From Carcharhinus longimanus (lineage: Eukaryota), in NCBI GenBank assembly GCA_030264375.1, contig JASCQW010000130.1, positions 17,588,696 to 17,652,695 on the forward strand: DNA of 64,000 bases. The letters are read 5' to 3'. Positions 48,311 to 54,459 of the stretch are shown here, piece by piece. The notes beneath the pieces are model-generated. The model ran no database searches, was not told the origin of the DNA, and was given only the letters and a program-made list of their open reading frames with translations. Both the position numbers and the translations under genes were made by a program. Each line of letters starts with the position of its first letter. The stretch's first letter is position 1.

Positions 48311-51089
48311 GTGAGCTATTTTTAAAAATTATATATGTTGATCCAATGTTTTGTAAGGTAAACTATCAGAAGATGAAACCTTGTCCTTAGCTAATGAGAA
48401 ATTGCTGTATTTATGTATAATTGGTAGCTTTATGATCTTGTGCACTGAATTTTCTATTGAATTATATTGATTTAAATTTCATAGTTATGTATGATTCTGA
48501 CATGCAGTACTCCCTATGTCTTCGTACTGTAAAGGAAGCTAGTTGAGTTTCTCTTTCATTTCTATAACAATTTCCTTTTCGCTCAATTCTCCTACAAAAA
48601 AACTAATGGATTCAGAAAAAGAACAAAATATTGGAAACAGTAGAAAAGATTACATTAGTACAGTGGAGGTGGTTCTCCTGAGGGACATTATTGGATTGAA
48701 ACTGAAGTTGGTTGCAGTGTTTTCATTTATGAAAGCTGTACCTGTTGTGAGATTTAAAAAATGTAACTAAATGGTATTGAAGGACAATTAAACACAGGAA
48801 GATGAAAAATATCAAAATATATAGAGAAAGAGCAGGGAAATCTTTTTGGAACTGATCGTGAAAAAGCTCGCACAAGCATAATGTCCCAAATGTTGCACCA
48901 GTCCAGTAATATGTATTATCTATTGCTGCTGTAGCCCCAGCAGATTTAATATTGGGAACATAAGAATAGAATGCATTAAGTAACTGATTATCTTTTTGAC
49001 AGTTGTATTTTTAAATTTATAGAAGGCATTGTTGTTTAAATATGCCCAGTTCAATGTCTTTAAATGGAGATTACATGGATTATATTGAACTTGTAGCATA
49101 GAAGCAGAAGATTTGCCCCAACTGGTCTATGTCACTGTTTAAGCAGCAAATAGGTCACCTCACAATCCTACTTCATCTCCTCCATCAACATATTGTTGAA
49201 TTTCTCACTTTCATGTTCTTGCCCATCTGTCCCTTAAATGCACTTATTCTATTTGTTTCTGAATTTGGATTCTGAATTTTCTGGAACTTTTTTTAAAAAA
49301 AGATGGAGGATCTTTGACCTTTGAATGTGCAACATACTTATTAGACTTTGCTTTCATTGCCACAGTTTGGCTAAATCATCAGATCACTGATAATTCCTGA
49401 AATCACTGCCCTCTTATTGGATGCAGAATTTCAGGCATGTAGTGTAATCAAATATCACTCAATTATTGTACAACCAAATACAGAGTGAAACTCCTTCAGT
49501 TCTCCTGAGGGACATTATTGTCCCTCAGGAGAACCACCTCCACTGTACCAATGTGATCTTTTCAACTGTTTCCAATATTTTGTTCTTTTTTCTGGATGAG
49601 ATTACCATTTAGGGCGAATTTTCTGTTTCTAAACCCTTGCCCAGTCAGGACTGGATAGGTCCTACCCCAAATCATTTTGATCACATCTTCCTTACAGGGC
49701 CAGGGAGATAAATCATAAGTCCTGATGCTTTTCCTCTTTCCAGCCCCTTCATGCATGATAGCTTCCCCCTTTCAAGGTTCACCAGTCAATACACTAATCT
49801 CCAAAAGCTATGAGTAAAATGATAACATCCATTGTTGGCATCTATTTTCAAAAATTGCCCAATACCTATGCAGCATAGGTCATTATATCACTGCTGCTCT
49901 TAATATTAATGTAGTGATAGTTTGTGTACATCCCATTCATGACTATTAAACAAACCAGAAAACACAAATTTTACTTTATCAGCATTTTGCAATATTGTTA
50001 ATTTGACAGGAAAATACCCCATTAGTTACTTATTGCAATGTGTCCAGATGGTAATTCTGATTTTGGCGTTTGCCTCATCCCTCATTATCCTGTTTTGCCT
50101 GCACATTGCATCTTTTGAATGTGGTGACAGTAAATTCATATTTGGGGGAACAGAAAAACTGCACAGAAATAGAAGACTTTCTCGTGCATGGGTGCCTGAT
50201 ATTATTCAATATAATTATTTCATAGGATGTAATTGAATTTTATTTTGTCAGTAATATCATAGGGTAGAAAGATCGTAACTCAAGAACTGGATTACTTTCC
50301 CCTTCCCCAAGAAACTGTCGTGCAAATCATAGAAACCTAGAAACTAGAAGCAGGAGTAGGTCGTTCGGTCCTTCAAGCCTGCTCCGCCATTCGTTTTGAT
50401 CATGGTTGATCATCGAATTCAATATCCTGATCCTTCCTTACCCCCATATTCCTTACCCCCACATTTCTTGTCCCCTTTAGCCCCAAGAGTTATATCTCAT
50501 TTCTTCTTGAAATCAGACAACACTTTGGCCTCAATTACATTCTGTGGCAGTGAATTCCACACATTCACCACCCTCTGGGTGAAGGAATTTCTCCTCACCT
50601 CAGTTCTATAAGGTTTACCCCTTATCCTTAAACTATGACCCCCTAGTTCTGAACTCCCCCAGCATTGGAAATATTCTTTCTGAATCTATTCTGTTTAACC
50701 CCGTTAAAATTTTATACGTTTCTATAAGTCTCACTCTTCTAAACTCCAATAAGTATAATCCTAACTGACCTACCATCCAGAAATCAGGCTGGTAAACCTT
50801 TGCTGTACTCCCTGTATGAACAAAGAACAAAAACAGCCCGGGAAACAGGCCCTTCGACCCAACGAGCCCACGCCGCTATCTTAACACCACCAGTCCCCCC
50901 TCCACCCATGACCCTTATCTAATGTTTTATGGCCGTCCACATTGAGGGAAACTAATTTAGGGACAATTTTTACAGCCAATCAGCCAAATNNNNNNNNNNN
51001 NNNNNNNNNNNNNNNNNNNNNNNNNNNNNNNNNNNNNNNNNNNNNNNNNNNNNNNNNNNNNNNNNNNNNNNNNNNNNNNNNNNNNNNNN

Positions 51090-51676
51090 ACCTTCCAATC
51101 CACCCCAGGGAGATTAAAATCTCCCACTACAACAACCCTGTTCTTCCTACACTTATCCAAAATGTCCCTACATATACCCTCTTCCACTGCCCGCGGGCTA
51201 TCGGGCGGCCTATAGTACACTCCTAGCATAGTAATGGCCCCCTTCCTATTCCTCAACTCCACCCACAGAGACTCAATTTCCAACCCCTCCATGTTATCCT
51301 CCCTCTGCACCGCTGTGATCTGCTCCCTAACTAAGAGCGCCACTCCCCCTCCTCTTTTCAACCCTCCCCTATCACGCCTAAAACACTTATACCCTGGAAT
51401 ATTTAGCTGCCAGTCCTGCCCCTCCTTTAACCACGTCTCTGTCACTGCCACCACATCTAAATTCCTCGCGAACATCAAGGCCCTAAGTTCATCCGACTTT
51501 CCCGTCACACTCCTCGCATTAAAACAGATGCACCTAAGACCCTCAGGCCCTCTCGGATCCTCCTTCTCCTGGGGGATTTTCCTATCATCTAGACTTACCC
51601 TGACCTCCAACTCACTCCCAGTGCCTGAGCTGTCTCTCTCCTCCCCACCCCCCCTCCATACTAGTTTAAACCCTGC
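51090..51676 (-). CDS. LINE ORF2 N-terminus, APE-type endonuclease (no initiator ATG; truncated by gap)
   Basis: Motifs CFNARS, VAVTETWL, GGGVALLV, GVYYRPP and VVGDFN. The frame is open from 51676 (stop at 51679-51677) to the gap. Confidence 0.9.
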
Positions 51677-52560
51677 CTAAACACTCCAGCCAACCTCCCA
51701 GCTAAAATATGTGTCCCCTTCCCATTTAAGTGTTCCCTATCCCTCTTATACAAGTGCCCTTCCTTTGCAAAGACTTCCCAATGGTCAACAAAACTAAAAC
51801 CCTCTGTCCTGCACCAATCCCTCAGCCACGCATTCAGCTGCAGGATCTCATTATTCTTATCCCTGCTATTGCTGGGCACTGGCAGCAGCCCAGAGATCGC
51901 CACCCTGGAGGCCCTACACTTCAGCCTGGCTCCCAACTCCCTGAACTGCGTACGTATTTCCCCCCTACTCTTCCTTCCTATGTCCTTCTCTCCTACATGT
52001 ATAATTACATCCGCCTGGGTCCCTTGGCCCTTCAAGATTCCCTCTACCCTCTCCGACACATCCTGTACCCCAGCTCCAGGGAGGCAGACCACCATCCTGG
52101 AGTCCCGCTTTTGCCCACAGAACCGCCTATCAATTCCTCTAACCATCCCATCCCCCAGCACTATCTCACATCCCGCCCCTTTCCTTCCCTCTGAGGCATT
52201 TTCCTCTTCTCCTCGTGCCCTTTCCACCTCAGTTGGTGCCTTACCCCTGATATCTTGAGAGACTGCCCCTGGGGTAGCCTTTACTCCTCTTCTTTTTCCC
52301 CTTCCTAACTGTAACCCACCCATCCCCCTCCTAGGATCTGGGATCCCCTCTTGAACGTGGTTCCTATTCATTAGCGCCTCATTTTCCCTGACTAAAAATA
52401 AATCCTCCAGCCTCAGCTCCAGTTGCCTAACCCGGGCCCTCAAACGCTGCAACTCCAGATATTTGGTGCAGATGTGGACTCGCCGGAGATGCTGTGTCTC
52501 CAGGAACTCCCACATATTGCACCTTACACAGCTGACACGTCTCCCCATGGACTCTGCCAT
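51661..52560 (-). CDS. LINE ORF1p: Zn-finger/leucine zipper plus SGNH-esterase-like domain (299 aa)
   Basis: N-terminal CxxC..CTKY and heptad leucines (LELQRLRARVRQLELRLEDL). VLGDGMVRG, CLPGA, HVGEKD and DREHLN blocks match the CR1 ORF1 esterase fold. Confidence 0.9.
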   Translation of the reverse strand: MAESMGRRVSCVRCNMWEFLETQHLRRVHICTKYLELQRLRARVRQLELRLEDLFLVRENEALMNRNHVQEGIPDPRRGMGGLQLGRGKRRGVKATPGAVSQDIRGKAPTEVERARGEEENASEGRKGAGCEIVLGDGMVRGIDRRFCGQKRDSRMVVCLPGAGVQDVSERVEGILKGQGTQADVIIHVGEKDIGRKSRGEIRTQFRELGARLKCRASRVAISGLLPVPSNSRDKNNEILQLNAWLRDWCRTEGFSFVDHWEVFAKEGHLYKRDREHLNGKGTHILAGRLAGVFRQGLN

Positions 52561-52718
52561 TTATTTGACCACCCTTAAACTTATGGACACAGTTGGAAAA
52601 ATTTGACCAGTATCTCACCTTGCCTAAGCCTGCCTCGCCTAAGCCTTGTGAGCCAAAGCCCTCGCAGCACTCACTCAGCACCTGCCTCACTCCGCTGCCC
52701 GCTGTCTACTGTGGCCTT

Positions 52719-53104
52719 GTTTTTGTACTCCTGCGCTCCCTTCCCAACTGCCCTTGCACCTAGGACCCGCTACGGAAAGCGCAAAATGCAAAAAAACCCG
52801 CGAACCAGCAATGCAATTGAGAAAAAAATCAGTACACTCGCAGTTTAGACTCACCAGCCACCAGTACACTGCTCCGGAGAACAATGAGACTGATCCTCGG
52901 GTGAGTACCTGTTTTGTACTCCCGCGCTCCCTTCCCGACTGCCCTTGCGCCTAGGTCCCACTACGGAAAGCACAAACTACAAAAAAACTCCACGAACCGG
53001 CAATGCAATTGAAAATAATAGCACACTCGCAGTTCAGACTCACCAGCCACCAGTACACTGCTCCGGACAACAATGAGGTACGCTGCTCTGGAGAACAATG
53101 AGAC
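52719..53104 (-). repeat. Tandem repeat of about 191-nt period in the LINE 5' UTR (two units plus a partial 26-nt sub-repeat)
   Basis: 52719-52888 and 52911-53077 align directly (gtactcc.gcgctcccttccc...ctacggaaagc...gactcaccagccaccagtacactgctccgga.aacaatgag). Confidence 0.92.
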
Positions 53105-54459
53105 AATATGACAAGAACATCCTTCCTCTGGTCAGGACATGAAACTGCAAACAGTACCCCAGATGTGGCCTCATCAATGCCCTATACAATTGCAGCAAAG
53201 CATCCCTATCCCTATGCTCAAATCCTCTTGCTATGAAGCCGACATACCATTTACTTCTTTACTGCCTGCTGTACCTGCGTGCTTACTTTCAACGACTGAT
53301 GCACGAGGACTCCAAGATGGCGTTGAGTATCCACCTCTCTCAATTTGCATCCATTCAAATAATTATCTGTCATTATTGCTACCAAAATGGATAACCTTAC
53401 ATGATAATTACATAATATTGTGTTTGCCAGTTAGATTCACAGAAACATTATTAAACCAAGTTTGAACCTGAACCACAAGGAAATATGAGGTCAAGTGGTC
53501 AGAGGGCAGATTTTGAGGAGTGTATTGAAAAGAGGATGATACGGTAGGGAGGCTCAGAGAGGAAATTCCAGAGCTTCAGACCGAGGCAGTTGATGGTACA
53601 GCTGCAAATGGTGGACTGATTAAAATCCAGGATGTGAAGTGACAAGACCATGCAGGGTTTTGAAAACACGGGTGGGAAAATTAAAATTGAGACATTGCCT
53701 GTACTGTATGTTACTACAGTATGATATTTCAAATGCTAAGATTTGGGTTTATTGCACTTAATTTATGGAATTTGTTATAACATACGAATTAGGAGTAGGC
53801 CAATTGGTCCCTGTAGCCTGCTTTGCGTTCAAAATCACAGCTGATCTGAGCTCAACCCCACATTCCTACCTACCCTAAATATAAACATAAACCTATGATA
53901 TTATGGAACCATGTATGGAAATCAAGACTGTGAAGAAATTCTAGATTTTCTGACAATCCTCTGCATACATTAACTGCAAAATATTCACTTCTTTCTTGGC
54001 ACAGTATTATTATGCTGTTGCTTTTGAAAGCCTGCTTGGGAACAGGTTGTTCAACAAACCAAGCTGTTTCAACATTTGCCAGGTTGAGCAGATGATGAGT
54101 GTGATTCCATGATCAATTATCTCAACAGGTGACCATGCTTACAGGAGACATCGATAATATGCAGCCTTATTTAGAACATAGAAAACCACAGCACAAACAA
54201 GAGGTTATTGCTGACCTCTTTTCTGTGAGCACAAGATCTTGGCATTGCATCTACTGTTTTAAGCATCTTTAAGATTGTTTGAGGCATCTTTGCCTGCCAG
54301 ATAATGCACCGCTCTGATGTGTAACAATGAATTCAAAATTCTTTTACAACTCTAGTTTCCTAACAATACATATAATCTAGAAATGCAATTTCTTTTGCAA
54401 ATCATCTGATCATGAACAAAATAATATTTTGAGTTTTGTGGATTTTTTTTGTTTTCTAG

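Follow-up and report, generated by a model that had tools for sequence, protein, structure and literature searches.

The window, by which we mean the whole stretch of 64,000 nucleotides of Carcharhinus longimanus DNA analysed here, contains on its minus strand a near-complete LINE. When the window is compared with itself, this proves to be the sole copy with ORF1 esterase and endonuclease domains. The element is a CR1-type LINE: an esterase ORF1 is followed by an endonuclease ORF2 in the -1 frame. ORF1 (52560-51661, minus strand) encodes 299 amino acids with a degenerate Cys motif, a predicted coiled-coil-like segment and a C-terminal SGNH/GDSL esterase fold, which matches PF13472 with an E value of 1.6e-8. 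The APE endonuclease domain of ORF2 covers 51090..51535 of the same strand (PF03372, E 4e-13). It borders on an assembly gap of 100 N (50990..51089), the expected site of the remaining ORF2 including the RT. The position of the window's own RT thus coincides with the gap; PF00078 is carried by P0177 and P0180, two close homologues of the window endonuclease.

The assignment to CR1 has several roots. Twelve homologues are 40-69% identical to the window ORF1, one of them being named from Stegostoma, and the nearest named homologues of both ORF1 and the endonuclease stem from cartilaginous fishes. A type IVB ORF1, i.e., a zinc finger/leucine zipper combined with an esterase, is described for vertebrate CR1 LINEs in the accessible passages of PMC4120745 and PMC13343379. 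With these elements the window copy has the ORF1 architecture, the APE domain and the junction sequence in common; its junction matches rows labelled CR1 in the accessible part of the supplement of PMC13343379. Checked for membership, the element has the Cys motif together with the C-terminal SGNH esterase in ORF1 and the APE endonuclease in ORF2. CR1-like tails are present beyond the gap.

The surroundings are crowded. Between 50960 and 50330 on the minus strand, a CR1-like 3′ tail after the gap is followed by a second CR1 ORF2 C-terminus with a tail of its own; these are probably two adjacent insertions. On the other side, 5′ of ORF1, self-BLAST reveals two tandem copies (52721..53077, minus strand; 169 aligned bases, 89% identical, period about 190), which probably represent, as we infer, a repeat of the 5′ UTR. 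An older CR1 RT fragment lies at 53142-53404, just past this tandem duplication of ~190 bp.

The window copy is probably decayed. At 52323-52280 of the minus strand the family motif GWVTVRK is found in another frame, family contigs carry insertions of 1 nt and 8 nt around this place, and the window ORF1 seems to run through two compensating indels. The catalytic motifs of the esterase are also changed (residues about 136-139, 188-193 and 274-277): GDS has become GDG, and DGxH is altered. P0001 and P0002 share these alterations. The residues of the catalytic site look lost in the subfamily of the window element, which suggests that its esterase fold is catalytically dead.

Anatomy of the ORF1/ORF2 junction

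On the minus strand, ORF1 ends with GGT TTA AAC TAG. The heptamer U_UUA_AAC (51664..51670) is in ORF1 phase and abuts the stop codon (51661..51663), exactly as a sequence-only reading of the window had placed it. The stop is TAG here and TAG, TAA or TGA in relatives, while the -1 frame always reads Leu. In the window sequence U_UUA_AAC is overlapped by another heptamer in phase, G_GGU_UUA (51667..51673), which, as judged by eye, recurs in the visible part of three published shark/ray consensus sequences and is missing from those of crocodilians and lizard. From 51676 to the gap at 51089 the -1 frame stays open; the earlier claim that it runs into the endonuclease without a stop is thereby confirmed. 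The element thus has an X_XXY_YYZ heptamer in zero-frame phase and a downstream ORF in the -1 frame which is open over the heptamer site.

Between the stop and the endonuclease extends a variable linker of about 42 codons (51536..51660, minus strand), which is open and devoid of Met in the -1 frame. The first ATG of this frame is found at 51475 and corresponds to residue 68; as the sequence-only reading had noticed, it lies past CFNARS, the first endonuclease motif. In an alignment with the L1 endonuclease, this Met corresponds to about residue 31. Another ATG, at 51659, has to be rejected as a start of ORF2: it belongs to the +1 frame, which is closed after 15 codons, and is not conserved in other families. 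A G-rich run begins at 51657, after the spacer of 6 nt that had been proposed.

A single site of this kind proves little, because TTTAAAC recurs by chance and two further in-phase heptamers lie off the junction inside the window ORF1, at 51802 and 52300. The 123,006 non-N bases of both strands of the window contain TTTAAAC 24 times (2e-4 per position), and any canonical heptamer is met at 0.6% per position. The argument is therefore carried by conservation.

A first view on conservation is provided by the contigs of three public runs, aligned on window positions 51100-52700, from which substitutions were read in 40 of 256 rows; of a run of raw reads (X21) only 2 reads aligned. The window copy has a TAG upstream of the heptamer (51677..51679, minus strand) that closes the ORF2 frame, from which the sequence-only reading had derived an overlap of merely 16 nt. 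The TAG is there, but it is a minority allele: T>G at 51678 of the plus strand, i.e., TAG to TCG on the minus strand, makes up 72%, 79% and 58% of the summed contig depth in the three contig runs. The short overlap is therefore particular to some copies and not a family feature, and the argument built on its minimal size is dropped. The substitution alone would extend the open -1 frame by 20 codons upstream, still without a Met.

The remainder of the junction is quiet in these contigs. In the G-run, no indel reaching 5% of depth is among those listed; the same reading had named as refutation a G-run length which puts the ATG at 51659 into the ORF2 frame, and this check leaves its proposal standing. 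The one indel listed for the linker is an in-frame insertion of 6 nt. Depth peaks locally at the junction bin in 3/3 contig runs, where it is about 3-30x that of the neighbours and comparable to conserved protein motifs; being a summed contig depth and not a copy number, this peak is only suggestive.

Of course, the junction could also be a signal at the level of RNA processing or of DNA: a splice acceptor at CTAG, a site of polymerase slippage in the G-run, or a DNA motif. The window junction indeed offers a YAG and a run of seven Gs, and TTTAAA is palindromic. The AG of the acceptor, however, is missing in families with TAA or TGA stops, as far as their published consensus sequences are visible, and a splice acceptor is thus rejected. 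Slippage is rejected as well: the G-run follows the stop, so that an inserted base cannot bypass the latter. The contig runs, which are not RNA runs, list no joint at this place. An explanation of this type is scarcely credible.

Conservation in vertebrate CR1 families

The supplement of PMC13343379 shows consensus sequences of the CR1 group, of each of which the first 400 bases are visible; the following counts cover visible junctions. TTTAAAC plus stop yields 23 matches, of which, by eye, 18 are at an ORF1/ORF2 junction of the CR1 group and 5 elsewhere. The 18 junction sequences represent 12 species among sharks, rays, chimaera, bowfin, halosaur, coelacanth, bullfrog, crocodilians and lizard. 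Such a search is biased toward its motif, and the downstream G-tract was therefore used as an independent anchor. In 8/8 CR1 rows with a whole junction, the heptamer was found 9-10 nt upstream of the tract, together with a stop; a ninth anchored row ends inside the heptamer. Two parts of the supplement that were read in their entirety have the heptamer in 3/3 visible junctions, which overlap with the set of 18. The ORF1 stop varies between TAG, TAA and TGA across these families, while the heptamer is constant. Continuity of the -1 frame was followed by eye in catshark CR1-1a only, the published consensus sequences being gappy.

Among the matches listed (17 of 45), the accessible part of the supplement shows no other codons for L-N-stop at a CR1 junction, and neither G_GGA_AAC nor U_UUU_UUA nor U_UUA_AAU junctions were found in it. 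Related elements are, however, non-independent observations. From these consensus sequences, U_UUA_AAC plus stop at the ORF1/ORF2 junction is a family-wide trait, from sharks to reptiles, and the conservation of phase, which the sequence-only reading had proposed to check, is seen in the 18 consensus junctions, in the 8/8 anchored ones and in 71/114 protein ends.

The latter figure comes from 160 collected ORF1 homologues, of which 114 reach the end of the profile and thus have a complete esterase end. LN is the C-terminus in 58/114 and GN in 10/114. The terminal tripeptide can be encoded by a canonical heptamer in 71/114, as compared with 2-13/114 at offsets 1-7 and a background of 3.7%; the other 43/114 end in a non-compatible tripeptide. 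By majority of clusters, compatible ends amount to 45/86, 27/59 and 6/18 at 70%, 60% and 50% identity, respectively. The homologues ending in LN are named from sharks, rays, eel, frog, turtles, lizards, a snake and a bird (swallow).

A further comparison concerns the residue ahead of the dipeptide. U_UUA_AAC and G_GGA_AAC demand different first bases, and a covariation between LN or GN and the preceding codon is hence predicted. Before LN, residues with pyrimidine-only codons are found 22 times and those with purine-only codons once; before GN the numbers are 0 and 9. Counted by cluster, the ratios are 13:1 for LN and 0:6 for GN (Fisher p=1.8e-4), in agreement with the prediction. A caution is due: xLN dipeptides inside the proteins lean toward pyrimidine-only residues too (52:17), mostly via a GLHLN motif. 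G_GGA_AAC is deduced from protein alone, with no DNA example found in the scans and in the supplement search.

Metagenomes and genomes, when scanned, yielded distant LINEs, prokaryotic GDSL genes and a single close CR1, L052; junctions of vertebrate CR1 were not among the matches, and viral contigs were uninformative. L052 is an intact CR1-like element. Its ORF1 has 352 amino acids and its ORF2 at least 832, the latter in the -1 frame and without Met before the first endonuclease motif. The heptamer is a different one, U_UUU_UUA GGG, one codon ahead of the ORF1 stop (L052:1384-1396). The site is of the HIV-1 type, and a G-rich tract plus a weak hairpin are seen downstream. Taken with the junctions above, both conservation beyond protein need and swaps among slippery heptamers are present in the family.

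Could the terminal L-N simply be required by the esterase fold, the heptamer being a by-product, and ORF2 have a start of its own? Ribosomes might then enter internally, or use a separate transcript, and begin at a Met or a near-cognate codon further downstream. The vertebrate alignments show no variation at L and N, some families have a Met in the linker, and the window linker offers a TTG (51610). Selection on the protein, however, does not fix synonymous positions, yet T-TTA-AAC is present in the 8/8 junctions of the unbiased, partly visible set; nor does it explain why the preceding residue is limited to codons able to end in T. LN, moreover, stays at the stop although the tail past DGxHL varies from 25 to 39 residues. 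A start at Met68 would delete about 30 residues of the endonuclease including its first motif, which is known from L1 work to be essential. We consider this explanation very unlikely.

Translation of ORF2

The best explanation of the junction is, in our view, that -1 programmed ribosomal frameshifting yields ORF2 of CR1 fused to ORF1. It is probably correct, as judged from the sequences compared. Most ribosomes would terminate after ORF1 and set ORF1p free. A smaller fraction would halt while tRNA-Leu and tRNA-Asn occupy UUA AAC, the delay being probably due to the adjacent stop and the G-rich tract; the tRNAs would then re-pair on UUU AAA, and translation would proceed via the flexible linker into endonuclease and RT. 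The expected product is a fusion protein of roughly 1,250 amino acids, made at a fixed low ratio. Since no protease is seen, the enzyme would stay tied to ORF1p and could co-assemble with ORF1p multimers on its own RNA. In standard tandem slippage the main trans-frame product would keep the terminal L-N of ORF1 and continue with L-V-W. This is one of the two peptides that the sequence-only reading had offered; the other, QGFK, is not expected under that model. Its retrovirus-style fusion is otherwise supported, with the frameshifting itself deduced from sequence comparison. According to the accessible part of PMC5009743, U_UUA_AAC and G_GGA_AAC are among the heptamers most prone to shift on mammalian ribosomes.

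The main rival is termination-reinitiation, because there are UAAUG families and because L1 can initiate without an AUG. It posits that ribosomes restart in the -1 frame at the ORF1 stop, on the AUG of UAAUG or independently of any AUG, and make a separate ORF2p as in SART1 and L1. UAAUG is used by SART1 (PMC3708506), and initiation at L1 ORF2 is AUG-independent (PMC5009743), both as stated in the accessible passages. TAATG is visible in three consensus sequences from sharks (catshark CR1-1a, dogfish CR1-17a and -6c), whose stop is overlapped by an AUG of the ORF2 frame. A SART1-type AUG at this place is absent in the window and in L052 and found in 3/18 visible consensus junctions. The codon over the stop is GTA in the window and, by eye, GTT, GTG, ATT, GGT, AGC, GCT, AGT, GAT or GAA in other families; it is thus mostly not start-like. 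The window copy has two UGGGA motifs 37 and 61 nt 5′ of the stop, which would suit reinitiation, but by eye they are not seen at matching places in the visible consensus rows. Reinitiation, finally, does not need an X_XXY_YYZ heptamer, and it leaves unexplained the covariation of LN and GN and the swap to U_UUU_UUA in L052. As the sole route it appears unlikely. Frameshifting and reinitiation could, however, coexist.

Whether the G-rich tract helps the shift is a separate matter. Its core, GGGGG-R-TGGG (51643..51653, minus strand), starts 10 nt past the heptamer and is a candidate for a stimulator or else for a G-D/G-G peptide motif in the ORF2 frame. The usual spacer between heptamer and stimulator is 5-9 nt, so that 10 nt are slightly beyond. 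The register of 9-10 nt is conserved in the visible consensus sequences of shark, chimaera, crocodilian and lizard, and only two G-runs are common to the families. A G-quadruplex, as brought up by the sequence-only reading, is putative. The tract is the top G4Hunter window of the element with 2.2, yet a coding G-run in the same element reaches 2.04. With 60 nt, ViennaRNA predicts a two-tier quadruplex only; with 104 nt it prefers a long-range G-C stem, which at z = -0.62 is not significant. Rfam has no family at threshold here and three sub-threshold matches. In the ORF2 frame the tract spells G-D-G and may therefore be a peptide motif; P0178 has GDG in frame with the endonuclease. A stimulator of the G-quadruplex type was then not known in nature, according to the accessible part of a review of 2016 (PMC5009743). 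The tract of CR1 could be a natural G-rich, possibly quadruplex, stimulator.

What emerges appears to be a known mechanism in a host where it is apparently undescribed, with a recoding signature that looks real, ancient and conserved. No statement of frameshifting for CR1 was found in the accessible parts of the literature, including PMC11835228, PMC2734521, PMC3905857 and PMC5006619; older CR1 papers may remark on the overlap. “Frameshift” and “overlap” yielded 0 matches in the main texts of PMC4120745 and PMC13343379, whose accessible passages do not address translation of ORF2. CR1 is not mentioned in the accessible part of PMC5009743, nor does that of PMC4837594 contain a passage on Asn14. 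The junction peptide is missing from the long ORF2 homologues. In P0179 and P0180 the annotation places a Met 23 and 15 residues, respectively, ahead of the NARS motif, which counts against frameshifting.

If frameshifting is indeed used, CR1 has a fusion protein as its replicase, ORF2 proteins in databases that start from the first Met are truncated, and retrotransposition assays of CR1 require an intact junction. According to an accessible passage of PMC13343379, most vertebrate species have the CR1 group as their dominant retrotransposon, and its junction would then rank among the most widespread frameshift signals of vertebrate genomes.

Related systems and distant esterase LINEs

How LINEs translate ORF2 has been called an open and important question (PMC3894237, accessible part), and several answers are around. 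With the -1 frameshifting of retroviruses and coronaviruses, as treated in the accessible part of PMC5009743, CR1 has in common the class of heptamer, a downstream polymerase ORF in the -1 frame and an expected fusion at low ratio. It differs in being a non-LTR element without a visible protease, and its candidate stimulator is a G-tract 10 nt downstream. Closer are two APE-type LINEs of Dictyostelium, TRE5-A and TRE3-A, whose ORF2 needs a -1 frameshift according to a figure legend in a review (PMC5911963). They would do what is proposed for CR1, yet are other elements in another host, and the accessible passages of that review show no slippery site or experiment. SART1 and mammalian L1 resemble CR1 in their bicistronic RNA and low-level ORF2, and UAAUG also occurs in the three shark CR1 families mentioned, as far as visible. 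They yield, however, a separate ORF2p, while most CR1 families lack a start codon at the stop. For LINEs of Paramecium, +1 frameshifting, reinitiation or stop readthrough has been suggested from consensus sequences (PMC5405496, accessible part); these belong to a separate clade and use the +1 or 0 frame, in contrast to the -1 frame of CR1.

The distant esterase LINEs may add a further solution. The distant set comprises 113 sequences (112 loci plus the window), 96 of them with a complete esterase end and 46/96 with a downstream endonuclease. A single in-frame TGA separates the ORFs in 26/46 loci, with C as the next base in 23; these 26 loci form 7 groups at 50% identity (5 with UGA-C) and have 48-126 open codons up to the endonuclease. 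Examples are L008, L011-L015, L017, L019, L034, L044, L050 and L067, where the TGA is often followed by CTA. The remaining 20/46 fall into -1 overlap (4), +1 overlap (2) and broken (14). A second set of 15 loci from three binned genomes contains 8 with a downstream endonuclease, of which 6/8 are in frame across a single TAG (G next in 5) and 2/8 have a -1 overlap, with Met available and no heptamer. Two loci with such a junction, L084 (recovered a second time as L113) and L116, count against the frameshift reading. UGA-C and UAG-G are leaky stop contexts; in a control, TGA-C terminates 2/25 prokaryotic GDSL genes. The TGA-joined distant elements probably use stop-codon readthrough, as their sequences suggest.

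In trees of the esterase and of the endonuclease (FastTree, short alignments), the heptamer-type elements group together (support 0.93 and 0.92, respectively), and the readthrough-type elements are outside; support for the deep nodes is weak, and we derive no direction of change from these trees. With little more than even confidence we propose that LINEs with an esterase ORF1, as a group, fuse ORF1 and ORF2 by interchangeable recoding: -1 shifting on U_UUA_AAC in CR1 of jawed vertebrates and on G_GGA_AAC or U_UUU_UUA in related lineages, and readthrough of UGA-C or UAG-G in distant ones. If so, they would have the same pair of solutions as retroviral Gag-Pol.

Two deposits deserve a remark. 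P0177, a shark-like CR1 ORF2 that is 64% identical to the window endonuclease, is deposited under Carnobacterium maltaromaticum and is likely a host contamination. Long ORF1s that contain an esterase and are joined by TAG (L114, L117, L118, L121, L124 and L127) come from contigs binned in Sedimenticola MAGs; these LINE-like contigs are probably eukaryotic contamination.
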